This document shows, in pieces, positions 7,442 through 19,213 of a stretch of DNA of 32,000 nt (positions are counted from its first letter, which is position 1; every line of letters starts with the position of its first letter). This stretch comes from Cellvibrio chitinivorans (GTDB lineage Bacteria; Pseudomonadota; Gammaproteobacteria; Pseudomonadales; Cellvibrionaceae). The notes below the pieces were generated by a model. The model was not told the origin of the DNA. It made no database searches and saw only the letters and a list, made by a program, of their open reading frames with translations. The stretch is taken from contig NZ_JAYKKN010000008.1 in the NCBI RefSeq assembly GCF_035117775.1, forward strand, positions 37,749 to 69,748. Reading direction: 5' to 3'. The position numbers were made by a program, and so were the translations under genes.

Positions 7442-7843
7442 TCAGGACTCAAGCCAGACATCCCGCACCCATTGCCAGACGGACGCCCAGGTTTCATCGG
7501 CCAGATCACCATCGCGCCAATAAACCACCTCTCCGTCCGGCTCTACGCAGTAGTAACTGCCGTTCACTTCGCAGATAGGCAACAAATGGCGCGGCACGCC
7601 CATCGCCCAAGCGGTGGCGGTAACTTCGGGTAAATAGGTGTGAGAGTTAGGATCGGCAGCGGTTACCGGCTCGATAGTGCCGTAGACCACATCGCTGGCT
7701 TCCAGCAGAAAGGTGCGTACATCGCGCGGGATGGGCAGAAGAATCTCTTCTTCAATCTCGACCAGTGTGTCTTCATCGGGCAAATCCAGCGGCACTGGCA
7801 CTGGTTCGTTGTGATCGCGCAGGAGTTCGAGTATTTCTTCCAT
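7442..7843 (-). CDS. SMI1/KNR4 (SUKH-1)-like small acidic protein
   Basis: The 133-aa protein has a layout typical of SUKH proteins (LP.P.DVRTFLLE ... LLPICEVNGSYYCVEPDGEVVYW). The family call is from memory of the pattern only. It lies 73 nt downstream of polB on the same strand. Confidence 0.55.
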   Translation of the reverse strand: MEEILELLRDHNEPVPVPLDLPDEDTLVEIEEEILLPIPRDVRTFLLEASDVVYGTIEPVTAADPNSHTYLPEVTATAWAMGVPRHLLPICEVNGSYYCVEPDGEVVYWRDGDLADETWASVWQWVRDVWLES

Positions 7844-7916
7844 CGTAATGCCTGTTAGTGATGACGGGAGGCGGAATATAGCCCGAAGCCCTTATCCATA
7901 ACAAGCGATGCACACA

Positions 7917-10319
7917 TCAGCCAAACAGGGATAACTGGTTCTCCACCAATTGCTCCAGCGACTCATCCATAAAATGCAAAATACTGTCGGCCACTGGCGA
8001 TAGCTGCTTATTAATATAGTGCTGATAATCAATCGGGCTCTGCAGCCAATTCATATGCACCTCGTAAGAACCAACAGGCTCGGGGCCATTGGTAGTGATG
8101 AGATAACTAATCCAGTCGCCGCGCCTTAGGGTTTCGCCAGTCAGCTGCACATATTTGCGCGCAGCCTGCACATGGGGCGGCACATTTTTTTGATATTCAT
8201 GTAGATGGCGACGCAACCGCTTGCGATAAATTAATTCCAAGTCCCGCTTACCGGCGAGCACTTCATCATTAGTGGTGCGCACAAAATCCAGATAGTCTTC
8301 GCCATCAAAAATTTTGCGATAGAGCGCGAGCTGAAAATCCTTGGCCAGTTGCGTCCAATCGGTGCGCACATTCTCCAAACCTTTAAACACCATTTCGCGC
8401 TGGCCATTTTGTTCGATCAATCCGGCGTAGCGTTTCTTCGTACCTAATTCAGAGCCGCGCATGGTCGGCATTAAAAAGCGCAGGTAGTGAGTTTCGTACT
8501 GAATCTCCAATGCGCTTTTGATATTAAATTCGTCGCGCAAGCTTGTTTGCCACCAGCTATTTAATTCTTTTGCCAAACGCGCGCCGATTTTATTGCACAG
8601 TGCCGCATCTTTTGGCGGCTTGCCCACGCAATTATTTTCCAGCCAGACAAAGAGCGAATCTGTATCGCCATAAATAACCGCATAACCCTGCTGCTCAATC
8701 CACTCGCGGCTGCGCTGGATAATTTCATGGCCGCGCAGGGTGATGGAACTGCATACACGTGGATCAAAAAAGCGGCATCCAGTTGAACCGAGCACACCGT
8801 AAAACGAATTCATAATGATTTTGATGGCGTGGGAGAGCGGTGCATTTTTATGTTGCTTGGCGCGGTCGCGCGCAGCCGATAACTGCTCAATCACCTGCGG
8901 TAATATATGTCCATCGCGCGCAAAATAAGCATCATTAAAGCCTTCTACGCGCAGGGCTTCATCCATGTGATTATGTTGCGCCAACCAATAGGCGCAGGGG
9001 TCGATTAAAAAAGTGCGGATGATACTCGGGTACAGACTTTTAAAATCAAGCACTAACACATTGTCGTAAATTCCCGGGCGCGAGTTCATTACATAACCGC
9101 CAGGGCTGATCACATCCGATTCCAACTCACCCAAATTCGGTGCGACATAACCACGCCTGTGCAAGCGCGGCAAATACAAATATTCAAACGCAGCAACCGA
9201 GCCGCCGATGCGATCCAACAGCAAACCGGTTAATTGGCTGCGCTCCATCGCAAACGCGAGCAACTCCTGCTGCACAAAAATATTCCACACCAGTTCGCAG
9301 TCGCGCAGATTGTATTCGGCCAGCGCTTGCTTATCGGTTTTGAACAATTGGGTAATATCATCGCCGCGATCTTTCCCTGCAATAAGTTTTCCTTCGCCCA
9401 ATAATTCCTGTGCGATATTTTGTAGCGAATAACTTTCATAGCGATAATTCGCCGCTTTTAATAATTCGATACCATCCAGTGCAACCCGTCCGGGAATTAC
9501 GACAAAACTGCGCCCGCCATCGCCTTCTTCATGGCGCCAGTGAATGGATTGATTAGCGCGCCCCAATTGCAATTCTATTTTTAAGCGCTGGCAGATATTT
9601 TCCAGCACCAGCAAATCAAATTGCACCAGATTCCAACCGATCAAAATATCCGGGTCAATAGACTGCACAAAATCAAAAAAAGCCAGAAGGCACGTTTTTT
9701 CATCGGCGCAATACACTAACCAATCAGACTGATTGCTACCGCCCTCGCCCACCATAAATACTTTTTTATCGGCATCCCCCCAAACACCAATCGAATAAAG
9801 TTGTTTGGCATCCATCGAGGTTTCAATATCGAGCGAAAGCATGCGCAGCTCAGGTCGCCAATGGCTTTGTGTTTCAGCTAAAGGCGCAAGGCGCGGATTT
9901 ATTAACGGCTGGGCGGGATGAGAAATATTGTCTGCAGGAATATCAAATTGCGCGGCAGCAGTAATAAACCGCTCCATTAAATAACGTTCAGGCGGGCGAA
10001 TATCGCTCTCCCAACAATCAATGCCATGTTGCCGGAAAATATCCTGCGCATCGCGTGCACTGCGTTGGCTGTGAAAATAGAGCGCGTTTACGGATTTATT
10101 CAGAAAGGTTTTTAATTCAACTTCGGCCATGCGCCAGCGACGCAAGTGTTTGATAAGCGTTTGAATCTGCGCTGCATCCTCGCGCAGCACAAAAAACACC
10201 ATTTCCTGCTGCGTGATTTGCGTCCAACAACTGCCCTGCTCCGTCGCCCACCATAAATCAAGCACAATCCCCTCGCGGGTATCGCGCCACTGGCGGGTTA
10301 ATAAAAAGGCATTGGTCAT
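7917..10319 (-). CDS. polB: DNA polymerase II (family B)
   Basis: Family-B motifs are present: DFKSLYPSII, KIIMNSFYGVLG, VIYGDTDSLFV. The N-terminus MTNAFLLTRQWRDT aligns with E. coli PolB MAQAGFILTRHWRDT, so I prefer the ATG at 10319 to the track's start at 10382. Confidence 0.95.
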   Translation of the reverse strand: MTNAFLLTRQWRDTREGIVLDLWWATEQGSCWTQITQQEMVFFVLREDAAQIQTLIKHLRRWRMAEVELKTFLNKSVNALYFHSQRSARDAQDIFRQHGIDCWESDIRPPERYLMERFITAAAQFDIPADNISHPAQPLINPRLAPLAETQSHWRPELRMLSLDIETSMDAKQLYSIGVWGDADKKVFMVGEGGSNQSDWLVYCADEKTCLLAFFDFVQSIDPDILIGWNLVQFDLLVLENICQRLKIELQLGRANQSIHWRHEEGDGGRSFVVIPGRVALDGIELLKAANYRYESYSLQNIAQELLGEGKLIAGKDRGDDITQLFKTDKQALAEYNLRDCELVWNIFVQQELLAFAMERSQLTGLLLDRIGGSVAAFEYLYLPRLHRRGYVAPNLGELESDVISPGGYVMNSRPGIYDNVLVLDFKSLYPSIIRTFLIDPCAYWLAQHNHMDEALRVEGFNDAYFARDGHILPQVIEQLSAARDRAKQHKNAPLSHAIKIIMNSFYGVLGSTGCRFFDPRVCSSITLRGHEIIQRSREWIEQQGYAVIYGDTDSLFVWLENNCVGKPPKDAALCNKIGARLAKELNSWWQTSLRDEFNIKSALEIQYETHYLRFLMPTMRGSELGTKKRYAGLIEQNGQREMVFKGLENVRTDWTQLAKDFQLALYRKIFDGEDYLDFVRTTNDEVLAGKRDLELIYRKRLRRHLHEYQKNVPPHVQAARKYVQLTGETLRRGDWISYLITTNGPEPVGSYEVHMNWLQSPIDYQHYINKQLSPVADSILHFMDESLEQLVENQLSLFG

Positions 10320-10452
10320 GGCGAGGCGACAACATCTGGTTAAGTAACCAGTATTATCCCGCGTAAAACACGCTGGATGCAATCACTCTAAAGGCCAGGT
10401 ATATAATCTATACCTCTTAAGAATCTGACTATTAACTTTTGATCACTCACGA

Positions 10453-11676
10453 ATGAACAAGACTCAAACAAACCCCCGCAATCACAATCACACCCCATCG
10501 GATTTTGAACTTAGCGAAAAAGATCAGCGCAATAATATTTGGCGGCTCACACTCGCCCAAGCTTTGGCTGGGGCAAATGCCGTGGTGGTTTATGCAACCG
10601 GCGCGATTGTCGGGAGCATGTTGGCGCCATCGGCAGTCTTGGCCACCTTGCCGATTTCCATTTTTGTTGTGGGTATGGCGCTATGTATTTTGCCTGCGGG
10701 TGTTATCTCTGAACGCTTTGGTCGTCGCACTACATTTTTAGTGGGAACTAGCGCTGGTGTTTTGGTTGGGTTGCTCTCTATGCTCGCCATGATTAACGCA
10801 TCATTTTGGTTATTTTGTTTTGCGATGCTATTTGGCGGCACCTACGCGGCAGTGGTTTTATCGTTTCGTTTTGCCGCGACCGATGGCGTGCCCGCTGCGC
10901 GTAAACCGCAAGCGCTGTCGCTGGTGATGGCTGGCGGTGTCGCCGCTGGCATTGTGGGGCCGCAATTAGTCACTCACACAATGGAGCTGTGGCCAGCGCA
11001 TTTATACGCAGCAACTTTTTTAATTCAAGCATTGGTTGCTGCGATTTCCGCTGTAATTTTATTTGGTGTGCGCCTGCCAAAACCCTCCCGTACAGATGTT
11101 TCTGGCGGGCGCCCGCTCGCCACTATTATCAAACAACCTGCATTTATTGCAGCGGCGGCCTGCGGCGCTATCTCTTACATGCTGATGAATTTTTTAATGA
11201 CCGCCGCACCTCTGGCGATGCATATGCACGGCCACTCCCACGCCAGTGCCAATTTAGGTTTGCAGTGGCATGTGATCGCAATGTACGCCCCAAGCTTTTT
11301 CACCGGAAAACTCATCAGCCGTTTTGGTGCGATAAAAATAGCTGTATCGGGTTTGCTGTTAACCGCCATATCTACCGTCATTGGGCTTGGCGGTGTAGAC
11401 GTAGCCCACTTTTGGTGGATGCTTATTTTATTAGGTGTAGGTTGGAACTTTGGTTTTCTCGGCGCTTCGGCCTGGGTGCTGGAATGCCACACACCAGAAG
11501 AAAAAAATCGCGTGCAATCATTAAATGATTTTATTGTGTTCGGCCTAATGGCCATCGGCTCATTTTCCTCAGGCGCGATTCTTGGTGTATACGGCTGGAG
11601 TGTTGTGCTGTGGGTTTCCTTTGTACCACTGGCGCTAACCGCTGTGGCATTTGGACTATTGCGAGGGAGAAAATAA
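10453..11676 (+). CDS. MFS transporter
   Basis: The 407-aa protein has about 12 hydrophobic segments. An MFS-like loop, SERFGRRTTFLVG, follows the second TM segment. Confidence 0.85.
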   Translation: MNKTQTNPRNHNHTPSDFELSEKDQRNNIWRLTLAQALAGANAVVVYATGAIVGSMLAPSAVLATLPISIFVVGMALCILPAGVISERFGRRTTFLVGTSAGVLVGLLSMLAMINASFWLFCFAMLFGGTYAAVVLSFRFAATDGVPAARKPQALSLVMAGGVAAGIVGPQLVTHTMELWPAHLYAATFLIQALVAAISAVILFGVRLPKPSRTDVSGGRPLATIIKQPAFIAAAACGAISYMLMNFLMTAAPLAMHMHGHSHASANLGLQWHVIAMYAPSFFTGKLISRFGAIKIAVSGLLLTAISTVIGLGGVDVAHFWWMLILLGVGWNFGFLGASAWVLECHTPEEKNRVQSLNDFIVFGLMAIGSFSSGAILGVYGWSVVLWVSFVPLALTAVAFGLLRGRK

Positions 11677-11687
11677 ATCAGAAATGT

Positions 11688-12038
11688 TTAACTGCGCAGA
11701 ATTTTTTCCATCGCCTTGCCTTTAGCAAGCTCATCAATCAGTTTGTCTAAATAACGGATTTTCTGCATAAGCGGGTCGTCAACCTCCTCCACCCGCACAC
11801 CGCAGACAACACCTTTTATCAGTGCAGCATTGGCGTTAAATGTCGGTGCTTGCGCAAAAAACTCTTCAAATGTTTTCTCCTGCACAATCTGCTCTTGCAA
11901 ACCCGCATGATCGTAACCCGTCAACCAACAAATAATTTGATCAACCTCATCCTGAGTGCGATTTTTCCGCTCAGCCTTATTCACATAAAGCGGATAGACT
12001 TTGCTAAAAGCAGTGGTGAAGATTTTGTGATTGGTCAT
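11688..12038 (-). CDS. DUF2200 domain protein
   Basis: The 116-aa protein reads [34 protein letters not shown] ... [37 protein letters not shown]. This matches the DUF2200 family as I recall it. Confidence 0.8.
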
Positions 12039-12099
12039 AAATTTTTAAGGTTTTTGAAATGTCAGATATCGGTCAAGGCGAATATTTATAAAAAACAAT

Positions 12100-12275
12100 G
12101 TAGGTTCGATTAGCGCAGCGTAATCGTACGAATGCAATTCCCCGCCCGAATTTCCACACAGTTAACCCCGAACCAGTTTGCAGAAAAATTCCAGCTTTAT
12201 TTGTTCGCTATTATCTATTTAATCTTGTTTATAGAATTTTCATACGTACGATTACGCTGCGCTAATCGTACCTAC
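12100..12275. repeat. REP doublet (REPIN/BIME-like): two 35-nt REP-like units in inverted orientation
   Basis: Unit 12100-12134 is gtaggttcgattagcgcagcgtaatcgtacgaatg. The reverse complement of 12241-12275 is gtaggtacgattagcgcagcgtaatcgtacgtatg, a 33/35 match. Each unit has a GTAG head followed by its own hairpin (cgatta...taatcg). The spacer is about 106 nt. Confidence 0.6.
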
Positions 12276-12278
12276 GGG

Positions 12279-13016
12279 CTACAAATCTATACTCAGGCTT
12301 TCTAGTGAAACAACACGACTCATTAAAACTTTTTGCTCAACAACAGAAATATTACCAAGTGCAGCGTGAATGAAATTTATTATATTTGGAATATCGGCAT
12401 CTGACTTTACAAAAATATAACGTATGTCACCTGGCCCAAATTTAATCGTACAATTTTCTTTAGTTAAAGAGTTCTCAATATCCAAATTGTCTTTATTTTC
12501 AAACTTTGACTTTCTTATATATGGCTTAATTTCCTCATGTTGTGGAACATAGCGCCATTCAGATTCTTGATAAAATTCTTTTTCTACAGGAACCCCATCG
12601 ATAACCATTTTCCCACTAGTTGGTTTTGTGTATGCAAGCAAATACCTCATGGTTGTCTTGCATAACTCGATATCTTCACCCTCTAATTTGTTGGAGTGAT
12701 CATTTAGGCCTCTAAACGAATTTGTTAGATTGTTATTTCCTGCGCTATAGAGAATTGGATTCAAACCATTCAGATGACCCCACTGCCTAGTAAGACCTAA
12801 TCCAAACTCACCGTAAAACCCTATATGCTCAGAAATTCTTGATAGCGGAATGTCACAAAAGCAAACCATTGGGTACGCAATATAGTCGAACTTATCGTAT
12901 CCGAGCCAGCTTATGTCTTCTAAACAATAACGAGGCCAAAAGCCATGTTCCAAGATTAATTTCAGAGTTTCTATGTTCTTGGTAAAATGAAAAAGCGTAT
13001 TTGATTTCGGTCGCAT
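12279..13016 (-). CDS. AbiGi-like (abortive-infection family) protein on a low-GC islet, with no AbiGii partner
   Basis: The N-terminus NTLFHFTKNIETLKLILEHGFWPRYCLED and the strings YPMVCFCDIPLSRISEHIGFYGEFGLGLTRQWGHLNGLNPILY match my recollection of the AbiGi (PF10899) pattern. I prefer the ATG at 13016 (GAGGAAATT-ATG) to the track's 13058, which has no Shine-Dalgarno sequence. Two 60-nt samples I counted were 32-33% G+C. Confidence 0.65.
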   Translation of the reverse strand: MRPKSNTLFHFTKNIETLKLILEHGFWPRYCLEDISWLGYDKFDYIAYPMVCFCDIPLSRISEHIGFYGEFGLGLTRQWGHLNGLNPILYSAGNNNLTNSFRGLNDHSNKLEGEDIELCKTTMRYLLAYTKPTSGKMVIDGVPVEKEFYQESEWRYVPQHEEIKPYIRKSKFENKDNLDIENSLTKENCTIKFGPGDIRYIFVKSDADIPNIINFIHAALGNISVVEQKVLMSRVVSLESLSIDL

Positions 13017-13292
13017 AATTTCCTCAAATGTCCTAACTCCGAAGCAGTTTTTCTGCATCCATATTATTTATTTGTTATGAGCTTTTGTAAGCACGGAATT
13101 TTTTAAGTGTTAACCTTGATATTTCCAATGTTCTCCCTCCAATAGCCCTTCAGCTTGTTGATGTTCGCAAGCTCAGCCTGCAAGGCCCGCCGCAACCTAC
13201 GGGTACATTAGCTACGAAAATTCAATTAAAGACTATGAATGAATTTACCGCCAGCCGGAATTACAGGTTATTACCTTGCGATATTTGAGTGG

Positions 13293-13326
13293 AGCAAAAA
13301 AGAAAAGGCGGCACTGTGGCCGCCTT
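13293..13326 (-). terminator. Rho-independent terminator of the amidohydrolase gene
   Basis: The stem aaggcggc (13305-13312) pairs with gccgcctt (13319-13326). On the minus strand it is followed by TTTTCTTTTTT. Confidence 0.8.
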
Positions 13327-13344
13327 GGTATTGAGGGATGGGTT

Positions 13345-14724
13345 TTACACTAGGTTTATAAGTGTTTTAACTGATTGCTGTACATCGGCGGTGAGTTTTT
13401 CTATGTCGATTGTGTGTACTTGATTGTTGCTGACAACTGGTTTGCCGTTGATAAAACTGTGCTTGATGGTTACGGGTTCGCCGCAGATTAGCGGTGCTTC
13501 CAGTGGGCTGTGCACTCCGGCGAAACGAGGTTGTTGTAAATCGTAAATAACTAAATCGGCGGCGTAGCCGACCGCTAATTTTCCGAGGTTTTGCAAACCT
13601 AAAATTTGTGCGCCGCTATGACTGCCCCAGTTAATTACCATTTCAACATTGGTTGCCGCAGGGCCATGCTGGCTGCGGTGTAATAGCCACGCGAGATTTA
13701 ATTCCTGCAGCATTGATGCTGATTCTGAAGATGCAGAACCATCGACGCCGATACTAATCGGTACGCCCGCTTGTTGCATGGCAATCACAGGGGCTATGCC
13801 GCTGCCCAAACGGCAATTGGATGTGGGGCAATGGGCGATGCCGGTTTTGGTTTGCGCGAGTAGATCGATTGCATGTGCATCGCTTTTTACCAAGTGCGCA
13901 AACCAAACATCGCTGCCGAGCCAATGACAACTCGCGGCATAATCGATTGCACTCATGCCGTATTTGGTTTGCGCTTGTTGCTCATCAAATTCCACTTCCA
14001 ATAAATGCGAGTGCATTTTCAAACCCTGTGCGCGCGCATATTCAGCGAGCGCGATTAAATCATTGCGGCTTGCTGAGTGAATCAAACTGGTGGGCGCAAC
14101 AACCAATTGGCGCATGGGTACAACGCCATATTGGAGTGAATAATTTGTTTGGTGATACTTACTGCGGCTCTGCTCCAAGCGCGCAATGACCTGCTCCACT
14201 GTTTCAGGTTCGATGCCGCTATCGCGCAAGCCGCGATGGGTGCCGCGCTCGGTGGCGCTGCCCCGACACAATACCAAACGAATTCCCAATTCATCTGCCG
14301 CTTGCCAAAGCGCCGCTTCCACTTCGGGCGATGAGGTCGCGTGATATAAATAATGATGATCTGCGCAAGTAGTTGCGCCCGAGCGCAAGAGTTCATACAA
14401 ACCGAGGCGCGCGGCGTGATACATCAGTTCCGGTGTGATTTTTGGCCAAAACTTATAAGGCACAGAGGCAAGCCAATCGCCCAAGCCCTGATTTAATCCG
14501 GCAGGCACACCTTTTAAAATTGATTGCGCTAAATGGTGATGAGTATTCACCAACCCCGGATAAATGCTACAACCACTGGCATCAATCAGCGTTTCATTTT
14601 GCTGCGGGATAAGCTGCTGGCCGAGCTCAGTAATTACACCATTGCTGATGCGAATGTCGCTGGCTGCCGGATGAGATTGGCTAAAAATTGCGCGGGCATT
14701 TTTAATTAAATAATTCATCTTCAC
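13345..14724 (-). CDS. Amidohydrolase-superfamily deaminase (COG0402), 8-oxoguanine deaminase / chlorohydrolase-like
   Basis: The metal-binding string PGLVNTHHHLAQSILKG sits near the N-terminus, followed by HSHLLE, HCPTSNCRLGSG and GVDGSAS. The overall pattern is close to P. aeruginosa 8-oxoguanine deaminase as I recall it (LPGLVNTHHHFYQTLTR). Confidence 0.8.
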   Translation of the reverse strand: MKMNYLIKNARAIFSQSHPAASDIRISNGVITELGQQLIPQQNETLIDASGCSIYPGLVNTHHHLAQSILKGVPAGLNQGLGDWLASVPYKFWPKITPELMYHAARLGLYELLRSGATTCADHHYLYHATSSPEVEAALWQAADELGIRLVLCRGSATERGTHRGLRDSGIEPETVEQVIARLEQSRSKYHQTNYSLQYGVVPMRQLVVAPTSLIHSASRNDLIALAEYARAQGLKMHSHLLEVEFDEQQAQTKYGMSAIDYAASCHWLGSDVWFAHLVKSDAHAIDLLAQTKTGIAHCPTSNCRLGSGIAPVIAMQQAGVPISIGVDGSASSESASMLQELNLAWLLHRSQHGPAATNVEMVINWGSHSGAQILGLQNLGKLAVGYAADLVIYDLQQPRFAGVHSPLEAPLICGEPVTIKHSFINGKPVVSNNQVHTIDIEKLTADVQQSVKTLINLV

Positions 14725-14764
14725 TCCTGAGTTAAAGGGCGGGAATGTTTCCCGCCGATTTCAA

Positions 14765-14801
14765 GAGCAATGTCCCGAGTTAACTCTGACCGCTTCTACT
14801 C
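14765..14801 (-). promoter_or_regulatory. Candidate riboswitch aptamer copy A (NMT1-motif / xanthine-class candidate) in the amidohydrolase leader
   Basis: The minus-strand sequence is GAGTAGAAGCGGTCAGAGTTAACTCGGGACATTGCTC. It shares its 5' and 3' boxes with copies B and C. It is followed by the hairpin GGCGGGAA-ACA-TTCCCGCC, then AGGAG and the ATG. Confidence 0.6.
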
Positions 14802-15088
14802 TTACTACCTTTATTAATAACATTGAATTTTGCTTACGCCAAGACAATAACAGCATGAGAAAAATAAAATACAATTTGGTGCAAAGCAGAATTTTAAGCG
14901 TATTTTTTTGGTGCAAGAGCAATAAAAAATCTGGCTTTAGGGAAGCAGATATAAATAGAAAATTTATTAAAAACTTCTTATCGCATCTATAGTTAGCCTT
15001 AGCTACGCCATCAGTTTCCGCGGCTGGCATAAGGTTTGCTAAAACTTAAACGAACCCGATATTTTTTGATTTTTGAATATCGGGTATT

Positions 15089-15139
15089 GAGTAGAAGCTG
15101 TTAGGTAACTCTCTTTTACGAGAAACCGGGACATTGCTC
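15089..15139 (+). promoter_or_regulatory. Candidate riboswitch aptamer copy B in the leader of the ABC operon
   Basis: The sequence is GAGTAGAAGCTGTTAGGTAACTCTCTTTTACGAGAAACCGGGACATTGCTC. Its first 10 nt and last 12 nt are identical to copy A. The inner helix changes GAG/CTC to GGT/ACC, which is compensatory. Confidence 0.6.
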
Positions 15140-15305
15140 ATTGTTCATACGTCGCAGCCTTGTGGGCTTATAGCAACGTGTGGCGATGAGATAAGCTTCT
15201 CCCCCGCCACTACCCCTCTGCTATAAAACTCCACTTCAAGCTTCGACCTTACAACATTGATTTTGCGCAGGCATTGCTCTGCGCATCTGTGTAATGGAGA
15301 AAGCG

Positions 15306-16340
15306 ATGAAATTTTCCACCCGGTTTTTCACTCTACTCAGCTTATTTAGCTGTTGTTTTTATGCACACACCAGTTACGCACTCGATAAAGTGGCCTTTCA
15401 ATTGGACTGGCTACCCGGTGGCGATAAAGCCCCTGTGTATGTCGGTGTAGAGCGCGGATTTTTTGCAGCAGAAGGATTGGAAGTCAACATCGCCCAAGGG
15501 CGCGGTTCCAATGATGCCATCAGTAAATTAGCCACCGGCAATGGCGATGTCGGCCTGAGCGATTTGGTTGCGCTCTTGCTCGCCAAAGCGGGGCAAACCG
15601 TTCCGGTCAGTGCCATCTACTCACAATTTAGCAAAGCACCTTACGCATTTTATGTGCTGGATTCATCGCCCGTAAAAACCGTTGCCGATGTAGCCGGTAA
15701 AAAAATTGCAACCTCCGCATTTACCTCCGCCAATATATTTTTGCCACTGCTGTTATCGACAAATGGAGTTGATCAAAACTCGATTCAATTAATTAAAGCC
15801 GACCCTGGTGCGCTCAACCCTATGTTGATTATGGGTAGAACTGATGTAGAGATTTCATGGATCACCGACAGCGTGCGCAATATTCAGCAAGCCAAAAAAG
15901 CGGGGAAAAATTTGCGCATCATTCCCTGGCACGATGCAGGTCTGGAGTTTTATTCAACCTCAGTCATCGCCAGTGATAAATTTTTAAACGAACGCCCCGA
16001 TGTTGCACGCCGCTTTTTACGCGCATACGCCAAAGCTGTTGCCTACACATGGGAACATCCGCTGGAATCTGCACAAGCCGTACACAAGATGGTGCCAGAA
16101 GTAGATGCTACTGAAGCAGAAGCAACCATAAATTCCATTCGCGATTTGGTGGTGAATGAGGTTAGCGCACGCGATGGTTTGGGAGTATTTGAGCCAACAC
16201 GCCTGGCAACCACTTGGGAATGGACAGCCAAAGGGCAGCAATTAGCAGTGGATAGTTTTAACCCGGAAACAGCAATTAAGCGTGATTTTCTAGCGGCGCC
16301 TCGCAGCGAGATTGCCACTGCGGAGGCATCTGCACAATGA
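15306..16340 (+). CDS. ABC transporter substrate-binding protein, NMT1/THI5-like (NitT/TauT family)
   Basis: There is a signal peptide, then FQLDWLPGGDKAPVYVGVERGFFAAEGLEV, typical of NMT1/THI5-like binding proteins. I prefer the ATG at 15306 (GGAGAAAGCG-ATG) to 15294. The stop overlaps the next gene's start (ATGA). Confidence 0.85.
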   Translation: MKFSTRFFTLLSLFSCCFYAHTSYALDKVAFQLDWLPGGDKAPVYVGVERGFFAAEGLEVNIAQGRGSNDAISKLATGNGDVGLSDLVALLLAKAGQTVPVSAIYSQFSKAPYAFYVLDSSPVKTVADVAGKKIATSAFTSANIFLPLLLSTNGVDQNSIQLIKADPGALNPMLIMGRTDVEISWITDSVRNIQQAKKAGKNLRIIPWHDAGLEFYSTSVIASDKFLNERPDVARRFLRAYAKAVAYTWEHPLESAQAVHKMVPEVDATEAEATINSIRDLVVNEVSARDGLGVFEPTRLATTWEWTAKGQQLAVDSFNPETAIKRDFLAAPRSEIATAEASAQ

Positions 16341-17164
16341 AACCTTTTGTCAGTTTTAATCAGGTAGGCCACCGCTATCCACTCGCACAGGGCGGTCACA
16401 TGCAAGCCTTAACCGAGGTCAGTTTCGATATTCATCGGCATGAATTTGTCGCCGTCGTCGGTCCATCCGGTTGTGGTAAATCTACATTGCTGCGTTTACT
16501 CAGCGGACTATTAAGCCCGAGCGAAGGCAAGGTTGAGGTTTTTAATCAGCAAGTGACGCAACCGCGCGACGATGTAGGCATAGTGTTTCAAAAACCAACA
16601 CTGCTGCCGTGGAAATCGGTACTCGATAATGTTCTTTTTCCGCTGCACCACAAATACGGAAAAGTTACCGACAAAGATCGCGCCTACGCCAAACAATTAA
16701 TCAATACTGTTGGCCTGAACGATTTTATTGATCGCCTGCCCGATCAACTTTCTGGCGGTATGCAACAGCGAGTGGGAATTGCGCGCGCACTGTTATTAGA
16801 CCCGGACATTTTAATTATGGATGAACCTTTTTCAGCGCTGGATGCATTAACCCGCGAAGAAATGGGTTTTGAATTACTGCGCATTTGGGAAGAAAAACCC
16901 AAAACCGTTTTATTTATCACTCACTCCATTTCGGAAGCGGTTTTGCTCGCCGATAAGGTATTGGTAATGAGCGCTCGCCCCGGACGCCTGCTGGAACAGA
17001 TTGCTATTGAGCTGCCGCGCCCGCGCAGTTTGGACACAATGCAGATACCCGCTTTTAGCAACTACACCCGCCGTATACGCGCACATATTTACGGGAATAA
17101 TTCCCAGTCACAAACTCAATCACAGCCTCAAGCGGACAAAAGATCGCAAACTCTCGCCGTCTAA
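16337..17164 (+). CDS. ABC transporter ATP-binding protein (NitT/TauT family)
   Basis: Walker A GPSGCGKST, signature LSGGMQQR and Walker B ILIMDEPFSALD are all present. Confidence 0.95.
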   Translation: MKPFVSFNQVGHRYPLAQGGHMQALTEVSFDIHRHEFVAVVGPSGCGKSTLLRLLSGLLSPSEGKVEVFNQQVTQPRDDVGIVFQKPTLLPWKSVLDNVLFPLHHKYGKVTDKDRAYAKQLINTVGLNDFIDRLPDQLSGGMQQRVGIARALLLDPDILIMDEPFSALDALTREEMGFELLRIWEEKPKTVLFITHSISEAVLLADKVLVMSARPGRLLEQIAIELPRPRSLDTMQIPAFSNYTRRIRAHIYGNNSQSQTQSQPQADKRSQTLAV

Positions 17165-17188
17165 CGCTCGCATAATTACCGATTAAAT

Positions 17189-17986
17189 ATGAGAAGCCCA
17201 ATGAAAATACTCTGCTCCCAGTATTTAACGCAACTACAGAAGTTATTGCCCTTGATGGCATTGCTCGCACTGATTCCCTTATGGCAATTGTGTTGTTGGT
17301 TATTTTCGATTCCCGAATTTATTTTGCCATCGCCCAGCACTATCGCTCACGCATTTTTTGAGGTGGACGCAGTGCGTTGGTTGGAACATGCATGGGCCAC
17401 CTTAAAAATTGCTCTCATTGGTTTTGCGCTATCGATAATGTTAAGTATTCCCTTGGCGATAATGATGGTGCGCTCTGCTTTTTTGACGAAGACCTTGTTT
17501 CCGCTATTAATTATTGTGCAGTCCACACCGGTGGTTGCGATTGCACCATTGTTAATTGTAATTCTGGGTGCAGGCGATGCCCCGCGTTTGGCAATTACGT
17601 GTTTAATTACCTTCTTTCCACTTGTGGTTTCTGCCACCACGGGTATGTTGGCTACACCACCAGAATTAATTGAACTTTCCAAATCCCTGCGCGCATCACC
17701 GGTAAAAGAAATTTGGCAGATTCGCCTGCCCTATGCCATCCCACATATTTTTAGCGGACTAAAAGTTGCCATTACCTTAGCGGTAATCGGTGCAGTGATA
17801 GCGGAGTTTGTCGCGGCCGAACAGGGGCTTGGATATTTTGTGCAATTCTCCACGTCGTTTTTTAAAGTGCCGCAAGCCTTTGCCGCTTTGCTTTTATTAT
17901 CGGCGATCAGTCTTTCGCTTTTTGCGCTTGTGCAATGGACCCAAAAAATCTGGTTTGCCTGGAGCTTACCGCGCGACAAAATGTAA
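17189..17986 (+). CDS. ABC transporter permease (NitT/TauT family)
   Basis: The 265-aa protein has about 6 hydrophobic segments and an EAA-like loop (ELSKSLRASPVKEIWQIRLPYAIPHIFSGLK). Confidence 0.85.
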   Translation: MRSPMKILCSQYLTQLQKLLPLMALLALIPLWQLCCWLFSIPEFILPSPSTIAHAFFEVDAVRWLEHAWATLKIALIGFALSIMLSIPLAIMMVRSAFLTKTLFPLLIIVQSTPVVAIAPLLIVILGAGDAPRLAITCLITFFPLVVSATTGMLATPPELIELSKSLRASPVKEIWQIRLPYAIPHIFSGLKVAITLAVIGAVIAEFVAAEQGLGYFVQFSTSFFKVPQAFAALLLLSAISLSLFALVQWTQKIWFAWSLPRDKM

Positions 17987-18014
17987 CTTTACATAGCAAC
18001 CCCAAAAAACCGCG

Positions 18015-18072
18015 GAGTAGAAGCGGCGATTGGAAAATACCGGCATTCGCTATTTTCCGATTGGCATTGCTC
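18015..18072 (+). promoter_or_regulatory. Candidate riboswitch aptamer copy C, intercistronic between the permease and oxygenase genes
   Basis: The sequence is GAGTAGAAGCGG-CGATTGGAAAATA-ccggcattcgc-TATTTTCCGATTG-GCATTGCTC. The same outer boxes enclose a 13-bp helix that includes 2 G.U pairs. It is followed by a short GC hairpin (GCAGC-AGC-GCTGC) plus TTTATTTAT, then GGAG and the ATG at 18114. Confidence 0.55.
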
Positions 18073-18113
18073 CATTTCCAGCAGCAGCGCTGCTTTATTT
18101 ATGGAGTTTTACA

Positions 18114-19136
18114 ATGAGCAATATCAATACAAACACCAACACTACAAGTCCGTACGATTTACAAGAGTTGCAATTTGAAAGCACACTTGGTGGCATGGGC
18201 ATTGAAAATGATGCATTACAAATTCCACTGATTGACCTCAGCAACTTCAGTGAGCGACGAGCCGAAATCACCGAACAGTTATGGGCAGCAGCAACCCAAG
18301 TGGGATTTTTTCAGTTGCAACATCATGGGTTGGATTTGACTTTGATTGAATCCACCTTTGCTCAAGCAAAAGCATTTTTTGAATTGCCCAATGCGGATAA
18401 AAAAGCCTATCCCCTTAAAGAGGGTTTGAATGCAGGCTGGGAATTTATGGAGCAGGTTCGTCCATCAACTGGCACTGCCGATCAAAAAGAATCCTATCAA
18501 GTCACCTTGCCGCACATGGACAACTTATGGCCGCAAGAATTGCCCATGTTTCACTCCATCATTCTCGAATTTGAAAAACGTGCGTGGCAATTGGGCATGG
18601 ATGTGCTCTCCTGCTTTGCCGATAAGCTTGGATTTGAGCGCGACTTTTTTAGCCGTGTACACAAACGAGAATCAGCACAGTACCAAAGCACACTACGCTT
18701 ACTGCATTATTTGCCAATGAAAGATTCGCTGCATCAGGAAGGAATTTGGCGTGCTGGCGCCCATACCGATTTTGATTGCCTGACAATGGTATTTCAAAAA
18801 GACGGTCAAGGTGGCTTACAAGTCTGCGGCGGAAAAACGGCCACAGAACAACAGGCATGGAGCAATGTCATTCCGCGCACAGATATCATCACCTGCAATA
18901 TTGGCGACATGCTCATGCGCTGGAGTGACGATCAATTAAAATCCACTCTGCATCGCGTGCGTATGCCTCAAGCTCATGAATATCAAGGCCCGCGCTACAG
19001 CCTCGCATTTTTTTGTCAGGCCAATAAAGATGTAATTATTCAAGGCCCGCAAAAAAAATACGAACCCATCTCTGCTGCCGACTTTTTACGCAAGCGTATT
19101 AACGCGAATTTTGCCGAAATACAGGAAAAAAAATAA
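18114..19136 (+). CDS. 2-oxoglutarate/Fe(II)-dependent oxygenase (isopenicillin-N-synthase-like family)
   Basis: The facial triad and 2OG site are present: GAHTDFDCLT (HxD), LKSTLHRV (distal His) and RYSLAFF (RxS). An N-terminal DIOX_N-like string is IPLIDLS. The track's 18030 start is a TTG; I prefer the ATG at 18114, which is preceded by GGAG. Confidence 0.85.
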   Translation: MSNINTNTNTTSPYDLQELQFESTLGGMGIENDALQIPLIDLSNFSERRAEITEQLWAAATQVGFFQLQHHGLDLTLIESTFAQAKAFFELPNADKKAYPLKEGLNAGWEFMEQVRPSTGTADQKESYQVTLPHMDNLWPQELPMFHSIILEFEKRAWQLGMDVLSCFADKLGFERDFFSRVHKRESAQYQSTLRLLHYLPMKDSLHQEGIWRAGAHTDFDCLTMVFQKDGQGGLQVCGGKTATEQQAWSNVIPRTDIITCNIGDMLMRWSDDQLKSTLHRVRMPQAHEYQGPRYSLAFFCQANKDVIIQGPQKKYEPISAADFLRKRINANFAEIQEKK

Positions 19137-19159
19137 ACTCTCCTTAAATATTGCGATCC

Positions 19160-19198
19160 AAAAAAAACAAGGCGACACAAATGTCGCCTTGTTCTTTC
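19160..19198. terminator. Bidirectional terminator between the oxygenase gene and GH67
   Basis: The stem caaggcgac (19168-19176) pairs with gtcgccttg (19183-19191). An A-run lies before it and a T-rich run after. Confidence 0.85.
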
Positions 19199-19213
19199 AA
19201 GTTAGTTTAAATT

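Follow-up and report, generated by a model that had tools for sequence, protein, structure and literature searches.

A xanthine-I riboswitch locus of Cellvibrio chitinivorans as a candidate accessory feeder of purine breakdown

The association of a pcbC-like dioxygenase, an NMT1/tauA transporter and a PRK12393 amidohydrolase was described in two studies that left the chemistry of the enzymes open (Weinberg et al. 2017, PMC5737381; Yu & Breaker 2020, PMC7373994). Binding of xanthine and urate by the associated xanthine-I riboswitch class has been demonstrated experimentally (Yu & Breaker 2020, PMC7373994), and a crystal structure is available (Xu et al. 2021, PMC8266621). The published logic of the class is product repression of genes upstream of xanthine/urate, and its sole reporter test was read as OFF (Yu & Breaker 2020, PMC7373994). 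Induction of xanthine/urate catabolism is not part of this logic. The locus described here lies in a window of 32,000 nucleotides from Cellvibrio chitinivorans. Its initial annotation knew of no characterised substrate for the combination of transporter and oxygenase; the combination itself appears among the genes that both earlier papers associate with the riboswitch (PMC5737381, PMC7373994). The locus belongs to a published gene association and thus is not a novel type of cluster.

Several characterised enzymes provide further points of comparison. Klebsiella HpxDE is a Rieske hypoxanthine/xanthine hydroxylase and fungal XanA is a TauD-family xanthine dioxygenase, a 2OG oxygenase that hydroxylates the purine C-8 position. 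Together they show that oxygen-dependent purine ring hydroxylation without a molybdenum cofactor exists. Thymine-7-hydroxylase (T7H) of Neurospora crassa acts on a free nucleobase (PDB 5C3P-5C3S; Li et al. 2015, PMC4787775). A feeder pathway with xanthine as its end point is known from pterin/lumazine degradation cluster I of Cupriavidus sp. LA-1, where the first step is a deaminase acting on 7-hydroxypterin (isoxanthopterin) and the route from pterin/lumazine to xanthine is established, with LuDH, DHLI, XCDC and PDA (Doi et al. 2025, PMC12391406).

Layout of the locus and its regulatory RNAs

The gene/RNA block spans 13305-19191 and comprises five genes, three copies of an RNA motif and a terminator at either end:

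13305..13326, minus strand: intrinsic terminator 3' of the amidohydrolase gene (8-bp stem with 6 GC pairs, then TTCTTTTTTG)
13345..14718, minus strand: PRK12393-family metal amidohydrolase (AMH; cog0402 deaminase type), 457 aa, assigned by NCBIfam, PDB match and tree
14719..14759, minus strand: expression platform A, with a GC hairpin (14738-14756) between the P1 3' strand and the SD AGGAG (14724-14728)
14760..14806, minus strand: canonical xanthine-I aptamer A (RF03054, 55.6 bits, E 5.6e-10)
14807..15083, no strand: divergent promoter region between the two leaders, placed by position only
15084..15144, plus strand: canonical xanthine-I aptamer B, GCUGUUAGG / CCGGGACAUUG subtype (RF03054, 41.5 bits, E 4.8e-06)
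15145..15305, plus strand: long expression platform B, 161 nt, 5' of the ABC operon
15306..16340, plus strand: NMT1/THI5-type periplasmic substrate-binding protein (Pfam NMT1, 144 bits)
16337..17164, plus strand: ABC transporter ATPase, its own ATG overlapping the TGA of the binding protein (ATGA)
17189..17986, plus strand: ABC transporter permease (Pfam BPD_transp_1)
18010..18077, plus strand: aptamer C, xanthine riboswitch variant with shortened P2a/J2, GCGGC-R-stem-N-GGCAUUGCUCC (RF03054, 25.3 bits)
18078..18113, plus strand: expression platform C, with a hairpin (18080-18094), a U-rich tract and the SD GGAG (18103-18106)
18114..19136, plus strand: IPNS/DIOX_N-type Fe(II)/2-oxoglutarate oxygenase (DIOX), 340 aa (Pfam DIOX_N and 2OG-FeII_Oxy)
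19168..19191, no strand: bidirectional terminator with a 10-bp hairpin, common to the convergent GH67 gene

Gene calls and profile searches recovered every gene of the initial annotation where it had been placed, and both proposed flanking terminators are present (13326-13305 on the minus strand, and 19168-19191). The second hairpin has an A-run at one flank and TTCTTTC at the opposite one, and its region gives weak terminator-like Rfam matches on the minus strand. One detail changes: the ATGA at 16337-16340, previously taken to couple ATPase and permease, instead joins the binding protein to the ATPase, and the gap between ATPase and permease is 24 nt. The open reading frame of the amidohydrolase (13345-14724, minus strand) likely starts at the ATG at 14718, with AGGAG upstream, and that of the binding protein (15294-16340) at the ATG at 15306, which yields a signal peptide. 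The oxygenase frame (18030-19136) has its real start at the ATG at 18114, with GGAG upstream. Within 14807..15083, promoter-like matches are no commoner than in shuffled sequence.

The shared RNA motif claimed at the outset is real: it is the xanthine-I (NMT1 motif) riboswitch, Rfam RF03054, of which A, B and C are the only copies in the 4.39-Mb genome. A and B score above the gathering score of 36 bits. Aptamer C falls below it (E 0.029), its P2a/J2 being shorter by about 1 base pair and 1 junction nucleotide, and its form recurs in other genomes. This form immediately precedes the oxygenase in 8 of 8 genome loci, as it does in all five metagenome loci with downstream sequence, and the P2b stems of the variants diverge in sequence with complementarity kept. 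Judged by its sequence, aptamer C is a conserved shortened variant of the xanthine-I class. By analogy with a class that binds both compounds (PMC7373994), the RNAs, with C as a variant member, would sense xanthine or urate, as had been suggested. The divergent paired aptamers, as in the published H. intermedia example, the proteobacterial host and the SD-centred translational platforms are further features shared with the xanthine-I regulon (PMC5737381, PMC7373994, PMC8266621), whereas the present locus is minimal and lacks Rieske/PDR, tadA and tsx genes.

The amidohydrolase, the oxygenase and the importer

The initial description of AMH as 8-oxoguanine-deaminase-like is imprecise. On sequence grounds it is an amidohydrolase of deaminase type, but it belongs to the PRK12393 family (NCBIfam NF009059, 624 bits against a cut-off of 543) and fails both the 8-oxoguanine deaminase model (397.6 against 532) and the guanine deaminase model (113 against 375). 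In the tree it occupies a clade of its own (100/100 support), sister to the clade of isoxanthopterin deaminase Sgx9339a (2PAJ; Hall et al. 2010) and apart from guanine deaminase and 8-oxoguanine deaminase. The best PDB match is 2PAJ (E 1e-111). With 2PAJ and with 8-oxoguanine deaminase (3HPA, 7WW2), AMH shares the cog0402 amidohydrolase fold, aligned HxHxxQ, HxxE and D motifs and, putatively, a substrate type consisting of a 2-amino-4-oxopyrimidine ring fused to a second ring. It differs in carrying APTS/HCPTSNCRLGSG, compared with APTT/HCPQSNGRLGSG in 2PAJ and APCSP/HCPCSNMRLASG in 8-oxoguanine deaminase. The 2PAJ enzyme reportedly acts on isoxanthopterin and pterin-6-carboxylate, not purines.

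By sequence and by fold, the closest solved protein to DIOX is N. crassa T7H (E 3e-29, TM 0.76-0.82; PMC4787775). DIOX keeps the HxD...H triad and RxS, the 2OG-binding residues Arg286, Ser288 and Tyr194, Arg190 and the base-stacking Phe292. It differs at Tyr217 (Phe in DIOX), Glu122 (Gln) and Asn294 (Gln), in its identity of about 29% and in its bacterial, purine-linked context. Homologues whose substrates are not nucleobases conserve Phe292 and the 2OG-binding residues too, so the likeness to T7H leaves the substrate class unfixed. DIOX has neither a Rieske nor a TauD domain and belongs to neither the HpxDE nor the XanA family. In extended versions of the regulon, DIOX is found together with Rieske/PDR genes; the window has no gene of either kind.

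The binding protein scores below cut-off against the NCBIfam SsuA, TauA and SaoX models. The folds closest to its AF2 model are a thiamin-binding protein (4NMY) and the FAMP-binding ThiY (3IX1), and on this modelling its nearest counterparts bind pyrimidine-type bases rather than sulfonates or taurine.

Distribution and genomic context

Comparison of gene neighbourhoods, which the initial annotation had named as a test of its proposal, revealed co-conservation across many genomes. AMH and the oxygenase form a conserved core in about 25 related loci, in which the ABC genes are optional. The arrangement, with AMH divergent from an optional binding protein (with or without ATPase and permease) followed by DIOX, and with an RNA leading each direction, recurs across Marinobacter, Thalassolituus, Halopseudomonas, Oceanobacter, Alteromonadaceae, Halieaceae, Bermanella and Salinarimonas, as well as Klebsiella pneumoniae and, as much more divergent members, soil metagenomes. 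Deaminases of the 8-oxoguanine deaminase and 2PAJ clades likewise occur in paralogous trios with a DIOX and an NMT1 binding protein, which argues that the deaminase–DIOX pairing is functional, not accidental.

The proposed link to purine metabolism is strengthened by at least seven loci from several genera in which the AMH–DIOX pair is contiguous with xdhA/B/C, guaD, puuD, uraH and uraD. The window contains no xanthine dehydrogenase or uricase gene, as originally observed; the genome nonetheless has puuD-guaD-uraH-uraD-xdhB on contig C1. XdhB and GuaD exceed equivalog cut-offs in all 16 carrier genomes tested, this one included. Given that xanthine dehydrogenase and guanine deaminase are already present, the module is probably an extra feeder and no replacement. 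Its location is a variable polB-GH67 hotspot, and no copy was found in 36 congeners.

Proposed role and direction of the switch

We interpret the locus as a horizontally acquired, minimal copy of the xanthine-I regulon that acts as an accessory feeder into the xanthine/urate pool, a reading to which we assign a probability of roughly 0.55. The binding-protein-dependent importer, from the modelled fold, would take up a small N-heteroaromatic base. The T7H-like oxygenase may then oxidise this base, either hydroxylating its ring or removing a substituent oxidatively, as in a demethylation, and AMH, from its family, would hydrolyse the 2-amino (amidine) group of a guanine-like 2-amino-4-oxopyrimidine ring; these two steps could occur in either order. 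The 2,6-dioxopurine product, xanthine or urate, would join the XdhABC, PuuD, UraH and UraD pathway that is present. By analogy with the class, the same product would be the ligand of the three aptamers, each setting translation of its own gene or operon. Candidate substrates include guanine via 8-oxoguanine, imported 8-oxoguanine, N-methylated guanines and other substituted guanine analogues. The ligand could turn the genes OFF, as in the published call, or ON, as the local RNA architecture looks. Arguing against a product-repressed feeder, it would be unusual for a catabolic feeder to be shut off by its own product; in addition, the nearest characterised deaminase, 2PAJ, would by analogy point to pterins rather than purines.

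Alternatively, xanthine or urate may turn the genes on, in a substrate-induced, molybdenum-cofactor-free shunt in which DIOX is a XanA analogue acting on xanthine/hypoxanthine, AMH a guanine deaminase isozyme and the transporter an importer of xanthine/guanine. The leaders here look ON-like in thermodynamic models, unlike the class as published. In the minimum free energy fold of platform A, the P1 3' strand pairs with the SD over the hairpin (duplex energy -11.1 kcal/mol), and enforcing P1 raises the SD-unpaired probability from 0.01 to 0.53. In that of platform C, whose hairpin is flagged as terminator-like, the P1 3' strand CAUUGCUCCAU is complementary to AUGGAG...CAAUG, the SD plus start codon (-10.4 kcal/mol). 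Such complementarity, usually over a clamp hairpin, extends to AMH leaders (mean z -1.87 against shuffled SD regions, with 13/19 below -1.64) and to variant-aptamer DIOX leaders (-7 to -16 kcal/mol), and enforcing P1 increases SD accessibility in most AMH leaders; the complementarity is weak in long leaders of the platform-B type. ON function also fits some representatives according to the legend of Supplementary Fig. S1 of Yu & Breaker (PMC7373994), and XanA is a precedent for C-8 hydroxylation by a 2OG oxygenase. Counter to this, the construct published as OFF gives an ON-like shift too (0.25 to 0.56), so this accessibility measure cannot decide the direction of the switch, and the one reporter test favours OFF. 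Nothing indicates replacement of XDH and GuaD, present in 16/16 carriers; AMH is far under the guanine deaminase cut-off, the guanine analogues used by its relatives bear an oxo group on the second ring, and DIOX lies outside the TauD/XanA family. We consider such a shunt unlikely.

The kinship of AMH with 2PAJ, its nearest characterised relative and sister clade, would also fit pteridine catabolism, in which imported pterin/isoxanthopterin is converted by AMH to lumazine, DIOX hydroxylates the pyrazine ring and the end product xanthine feeds back on the riboswitches. The Cupriavidus route provides a precedent (PMC12391406), but that cluster lacks a 2OG oxygenase, and its enzymes include a molybdenum dehydrogenase, an Amidohydro_2 isomerase and a UbiD-type decarboxylase. 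The Cellvibrio genome has one UbiD-family gene and none of the Amidohydro_2 family above cut-off, so neither the isomerase nor the decarboxylase for 6,7-dihydroxylumazine to xanthine was found there. Neighbours of the pair in other genera belong to purine metabolism (xdh, guaD, puuD, uraHD) and not to that of pterins, and the natural substrate of the 2PAJ group is itself called unclear in the literature, which together make a pteridine role quite improbable. Far less credible still is an importer for thiamin precursors (HMP/FAMP), sulfonates or nitrate beside unrelated enzymes. The Pfam name NMT1/THI5, weak NCBIfam matches to SsuA, TauA and NtrCD-type components and the thiamin-binding and ThiY folds point that way, but these matches are all far under cut-offs, the leader has a xanthine aptamer and the locus no TPP riboswitch, and thiamin-related compounds failed to bind the xanthine-I class in published work. 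Moreover, the binding protein/ABC genes co-occur strictly with AMH, DIOX and purine catabolic genes.

Returning to the feeder reading, what is new relative to the published association is the AMH–oxygenase core with optional ABC genes, the xdhABC-guaD-puuD-uraHD adjacency and the placement of a feeder alongside XDH/GuaD. New too are the AMH clade sister to isoxanthopterin deaminase, an oxygenase nearest to thymine-7-hydroxylase, and the polB-GH67 hotspot, with no copy of the module found in 36 congeners. On this reading, the importer, the deaminase-type hydrolase and the iron oxygenase, under control of the three RNA switches, probably deliver an unusual guanine-like base to the ordinary breakdown of purines. 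If the ON-like appearance of the leaders is true, the riboswitch ligand would more naturally be the substrate.

A delimited module behind three xanthine-I leaders

Lying between the polB and GH67 genes, the module is real and well delimited, and is made up of five genes and three structured leaders. The leaders carry xanthine-I (NMT1 motif, RF03054) aptamers, designated copies A, B and C, which stand before a PRK12393-family amidohydrolase gene (AMH), an ABC transporter operon and an Fe(II)/2OG oxygenase gene (DIOX), respectively.

Features of the module, with positions in the window
13326-13305, minus strand: intrinsic terminator after AMH, rated good
13345-14718, minus strand: AMH, a 457-aa metal amidohydrolase (Pfam Amidohydro_1; NCBIfam NF009059)
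14806-14760: copy A, in the AMH leader, RF03054 at 55.6 bits (Rfam)
15084-15144: copy B, in the ABC-operon leader, RF03054 at 41.5 bits (Rfam)
15306-16340, plus strand: binding protein of the NMT1/THI5 type with a signal peptide, divergent from AMH
16337-17164, plus strand: ABC ATPase, whose own ATG overlaps the TGA of the binding-protein gene (ATGA)
17189-17986, plus strand: ABC permease
18010-18077: copy C, before DIOX, RF03054 at 25.3 bits, sub-threshold (relaxed search)
18114-19136, plus strand: DIOX, 340 aa (Pfam DIOX_N and 2OG-FeII_Oxy)
19168-19191: bidirectional 10-bp hairpin after DIOX and the convergent GH67 gene

The initial annotation described the genes, leaders and terminators correctly, apart from placing the ATGA coupling between ATPase and permease; the overlap joins the binding protein and the ATPase. 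The permease and DIOX are separated by 127 nt. No homologue of the region was found in E. coli.

Copies A and B reach the RF03054 gathering score of 36 bits and copy C alone does not; no further copies were found in the C. chitinivorans genome. The positions in contact with the ligand or stacked on it (A6, A9, G10, C11, G35, A39, U40 and U41, in the crystal numbering of PMC8266621, mapped onto the copies by our own assignment) are kept in all three (GAGUAGAAGCG...CAUUGCUC). In the crystal structure, G10 and U40 clamp xanthine, which is sandwiched by the A39-G35-C11 and A9-A6-U41 triples, with a Mg2+ ion at O6 and C8 exposed to solvent (PMC8266621). The published ligands of the class are xanthine (Kd about 3.7 uM), urate and 8-azaxanthine; N-methylated and 2-amino analogues are rejected. 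Ligand binding or an effect on expression has been demonstrated only with aptamers from S. plymuthica and Ideonella and with a single H. intermedia reporter; copies A to C are putative sensors of xanthine or urate.

The genes downstream match the published regulon types: a pcbC-like dioxygenase, NMT1/tauA and PRK12393. Weinberg et al. 2017 (PMC5737381) placed the riboswitch-linked amidohydrolases in an 'ambiguous' group near isoxanthopterin deaminases. Regarding the dioxygenases, the authors of the class state that the 'precise functions ... have not been established', and they see no clear purpose for repression of these enzymes by xanthine. Given that both the RNA class and its gene association have been published, the locus is a further example of that association and, in itself, an ordinary instance of the regulon.

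Other elements related to the motif were also seen. A 6-bp hairpin (GCGCAG/CUGCGC) at window positions 15267-15286 bears another CAUUGCUC box, located in the loop and the 3' arm; the hairpin lies within the long platform B, about 20 nt ahead of the Shine-Dalgarno (SD) sequence of the ABC operon. An aptamer-like form, GCGGCCGGAAUCCGAGUCUGAAUAGGCAUUGCUCGCG, occurs on three metagenome contigs (L074, L075 and L088), where no homologue of DIOX, AMH, the binding protein or the ABC genes was found up to 6 kb downstream.

The shortened aptamer before DIOX and the direction of the switch

Compared with the canonical arrangement, GCGGUCAG-[P2b]-CGGGACAU, copy C reads GCGGC-G-[P2b]-U-GG-CAU, with P2a shorter by 1 bp (two pairs) and J2 shorter by 1 nt. 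The three-bp P2a (G13-C38, U14-A37, C15-G36) and the J2 composed of A16 and C33-G34-G35 are present in copies A and B and absent from copy C. Copy C is a variant and not a canonical RF03054 member. The same form was found in eight genome loci: the window, an Alteromonadaceae isolate, two Thalassolituus, a Cellvibrio MAG, an Alteromonadaceae MAG, a Halieaceae isolate and a Bermanella MAG. Across these loci the P2b stems vary in sequence and keep their complementarity, and the short variant lies directly upstream of DIOX in all eight. Only one of the seven in other genomes reaches the Rfam threshold (36.9 bits). An exact-pattern scan of metagenome contigs, in which most matches were other canonical subtypes (GCGGCUAG..., GCGGCCAGG...), yielded six further true short variants (L078, L085, L095, L096, L104 and L110), three of them new and three duplicating genome loci already counted; DIOX follows in 5/5 of those with downstream sequence. 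The usual place of the short variant is inside the operon, after the permease gene. In two Thalassolituus genomes, a canonical aptamer is followed in tandem by a short variant before the oxygenase gene, the two about 100-130 nt apart (7809-7846 and 7950-7987 in locus L013; 2470-2546 and 2674-2709 in locus L022), possibly forming a two-aptamer tandem riboswitch.

In the AMH leaders and the short DIOX leaders with the variant aptamer, the P1 3' strand (CAUUGCUCxx) could pair with the complementary SD region, in most cases bridging a small clamp hairpin; the duplex energies are -11.1 kcal/mol in leader A and -10.4 kcal/mol in leader C. The 19 AMH leaders have a mean z of -1.87 relative to shuffled SD regions. 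When P1 is enforced, the predicted probability of an unpaired SD rises in most AMH leaders, from 0.01 to 0.53 in leader A of the window. In these models, the AMH and short DIOX leaders have the look of an ON switch, and ON-like cases are conceded in a supplementary legend of Yu & Breaker 2020 (PMC7373994). No such simple pairing between the P1 3' strand and the SD is seen in long leaders, among them that of the ABC operon (161 nt), and swapping P1 3' boxes between leader types made no clear difference. The calculation of SD accessibility also gave an ON-like shift for the H. intermedia construct, published as OFF on the basis of an experiment that compared the wild type with one mutant only. 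As the signal is shared with a construct published as OFF, the thermodynamic model cannot overrule the experiment, and we dropped these models as a basis for an ON/OFF verdict.

A conserved pair of enzymes and their family placement

The genes that the initial annotation grouped into a module are co-conserved in other genomes. Scanning for DIOX recovered 26 loci, in marine Gammaproteobacteria and one alphaproteobacterium, with oxygenases that are 62-71% identical. AMH lies divergently upstream in 23 of these, with an aptamer before each unit; for the three loci that lack it (L021, L023 and L025), the contig is short or the match falls close to its end. Eleven DIOX loci include the binding-protein gene, and six the full ABC set; in the remainder the ABC genes are absent, or a distant NMT1-type ABC system is nearby. 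Given this variability of the transporter, the constant core is AMH plus DIOX.

Far more diverged versions of this trio occur in soil metagenome operons and in Klebsiella pneumoniae. On two soil contigs (L108:2187-9853 and L105:1975-7770), an extended operon behind an aptamer of the GCGGCUAG...GGGGCAUUGCUC subtype encodes, in order after the riboswitch, a PDR-like reductase, an NMT1 binding protein, DIOX, a VanA-type Rieske oxygenase, the ATPase, the permease and a PRK12393 amidohydrolase (755-762 bits); the oxygenase is about 30% identical to that of the window. On the K. pneumoniae plasmid NZ_CP084170.1 (L116:4396-7963), a 63.4-bit xanthine aptamer is followed by genes for a binding protein, an amidohydrolase and a 2OG oxygenase that shares 60% identity with DIOX. 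Neighbouring this unit are a LysR gene and, running divergently, an operon for a PDR/VanB oxidoreductase, an amidohydrolase, RidA and a creatininase-family protein.

Trios of paralogues that lack a riboswitch were seen as well. In Halopseudomonas, such a trio consists of a DIOX paralogue, a deaminase of the 8-oxoguanine deaminase clade and an NMT1 protein. At L015:805-3362 and L029:2568-5124, a few kb from the riboswitch-controlled module, the paralogous module has a DIOX paralogue (32-35% identity) divergent from a deaminase of that clade, with an NMT1-type protein adjoining and no xanthine aptamer found at either site. The gammaproteobacterium G210 combines a 2PAJ-clade deaminase, two DIOX-type genes and an NMT1 protein with ABC genes, a Rieske oxygenase, a creatininase-family gene and an FAD oxidase.

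The module is an accessory island. No DIOX turned up in 36 other Cellvibrio genomes, and in one congener (G028, locus L069) polB is separated from the GH67 gene by about 420 nt. The corresponding gap in the window (10383-19213) spans 8.8 kb and is occupied by the module together with an MFS gene and an AbiGi gene flanked by REP elements; another congener has different, unrelated DNA there. The gap is a variable hotspot. The GC content of the module is close to that of its surroundings. Among 400 evenly sampled Gammaproteobacteria, three have PRK12393 members above the cut-off.

AMH scores 624 bits with the PRK12393 model (NCBIfam NF009059, cut-off 543). Core members of the family, found in genomes G263 and G210 and in the soil operons, reach 708-762 bits and share only 42-46% identity with AMH, which places AMH in a distinct subclade. 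Its best solved relative is the deaminase 2PAJ (E 1e-111), followed by 8-oxoguanine deaminases (about 1e-80). In a maximum-likelihood tree, 23 riboswitch- and DIOX-linked AMHs form one clade (support 100/100) that is sister to 2PAJ, G210 and G263 (100/95) and not inside the 2PAJ clade; it is separate from both the 8-oxoguanine deaminases and a third cog0402 clade, which includes a gene near xdh in the C. chitinivorans genome. The label '8-oxoguanine-deaminase-like' in the initial annotation is imprecise, and AMH is rejected as an 8-oxoguanine deaminase: it scores 397.6 bits with NF006055, below the cut-off of 532, and the 8-oxoguanine deaminases 3HPA and 7WW2 fall in another well-supported clade. 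Guanine deaminase is likewise ruled out, both by score (TIGR02967, 113 bits against 375.4) and by tree placement.

2PAJ, the Sargasso Sea enzyme Sgx9339a, reportedly deaminates isoxanthopterin and pterin-6-carboxylate, and Gln/Tyr/Thr/Thr are said to be the substrate-binding residues of isoxanthopterin deaminase. In the alignment of AMH with 2PAJ, the Gln of HxHxxQ and one Thr (APT) match, and the next residue is Ser, not Thr. Both characterised groups next to AMH deaminate a guanine-type ring fused to an oxo-bearing second ring. In G263 (L062:6975-9947), a core PRK12393 member of the 2PAJ clade (713 bits), without a riboswitch, adjoins an AtzD/TrzD-type ring-opening amidohydrolase and an ABC transporter, a neighbourhood that gives a hint of activity on triazine- or barbiturate-like rings in part of the family.

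DIOX is of the IPNS/DIOX_N type, with the DIOX_N and 2OG-FeII_Oxy domains (Pfam), the HxD...H triad and the RxS motif; H217/D219/H280 and R294/S296 are invariant in 18 homologues. Its domain content also rules out an XanA-type xanthine dioxygenase, as there is no match to TauD/TfdA (PF02668). The closest solved protein is N. crassa thymine-7-hydroxylase (T7H), both by sequence (3e-29) and by fold (TM 0.76-0.82, from an AF2 model with pLDDT 83). Of the T7H residues (PMC4787775), those of the metal triad, the 2OG ligands, Arg190 and the base-stacking Phe292 are conserved in DIOX; it has Phe in place of Tyr217, and Gln in place of both Glu122 and Asn294. Homologues with substrates other than nucleobases also have Phe292 and the 2OG ligands, so these shared residues are only weakly informative about a nucleobase substrate; the similarity to T7H is compatible with a free heteroaromatic base and falls short of proof. 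For the binding protein, the AF2 model (pLDDT 79) is closest to a thiamin-binding protein and the FAMP-binding ThiY, with sulfonate and taurine binders further away. A sulfonate, taurine or SaoX type is rejected by NCBIfam score (SsuA_fam 76.9 against 163.5; SaoX 43.7 against 300; taurine 24 against 304).

An addition to the purine pathway

The genomic company of the pair in other genera is purine catabolism. In Marinobacter, Halopseudomonas, Natronospirillum and others, AMH and DIOX are contiguous with xdhA, xdhB and xdhC, guaD, puuD (membrane urate hydroxylase, PF06181) and the genes for hydroxyisourate hydrolase and OHCU decarboxylase. In the C. chitinivorans genome, puuD, guaD, uraH, uraD and xdhB stand in a row on contig C1 (guaD at 127344-128543, 575 bits). 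A cog0402 amidohydrolase gene of the third clade lies about 7 kb from this xdh-guaD-puuD cluster (C1:140150-141490). XdhB and guanine deaminase (GuaD) exceed the NCBIfam equivalog cut-offs in 16 of 16 carrier genomes tested, which rules out replacement of xanthine dehydrogenase (XDH) or GuaD by the module. The module is an add-on to a complete guanine/xanthine/urate pathway.

What the pair adds can be narrowed by weighing the alternatives against this setting. AMH and DIOX might simply be a second guanine deaminase and a xanthine hydroxylase. This reading is weakened, since the family placement of AMH speaks against it and GuaD and XDH are present in every carrier tested. Alternatively, the enzymes could belong to a pterin route such as that of Cupriavidus, in which pteridines are converted to xanthine via a molybdenum dehydrogenase, the Amidohydro_2 isomerase DHLI and the UbiD-type decarboxylase XCDC (PMC12391406). 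A single UbiD-family gene is present in the C. chitinivorans genome, where XCDC would be an extra paralogue, and no Amidohydro_2 gene exceeds the cut-off; genes of the DHLI and XCDC types were not found in it. Together with the purine genes that accompany the pair in other genera, this also weakens the pterin explanation.

The remaining possibility is that a guanine-like base outside the reach of the standard enzymes would be oxidised by DIOX and deaminated by AMH, giving xanthine or urate. Candidate substrates are guanine via 8-oxoguanine, imported 8-oxoguanine and methylated guanines. In one version, guanine would be converted to 8-oxoguanine and then to urate without molybdenum cofactor, by a guanine 8-hydroxylase followed by a specialised deaminase. 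In another, methylated guanines would yield xanthine by deamination and oxidative N-demethylation; the xanthine-I aptamer rejects N-methylxanthines and binds the demethylated product. We found no paper that assigns a substrate to enzymes of the AMH or DIOX type, nor one on bacterial 7-methylguanine catabolism. On the RNA side, the short aptamer may have altered affinity or specificity (for example, urate versus xanthine), and may give the oxygenase gene its own set-point within the operon and act as an ON switch, contrary to the published call. That the two enzymes perform an undescribed purine conversion and that copy-C-type aptamers form a distinct riboswitch subclass acting ON is, taken together, a speculative proposal to which we assign a probability of roughly 15%.

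Since 2017, the genes downstream of the xanthine riboswitch have been described as unexplained. Among the versions seen, the locus described here is the barest, having an importer, a single hydrolase and a single oxygenase, each preceded by an aptamer, and the problem narrows to two enzymes. Comparison constrains it further: both enzymes come on top of a complete pathway, guanine and 8-oxoguanine deaminase are excluded as identities of the hydrolase, and the classical pterin route was not found in the C. chitinivorans genome. If the substrate were found, it would settle the direction of the riboswitch class and would reveal a new entry point through which purine nitrogen is recycled, both in Klebsiella and in bacteria of sea and soil.
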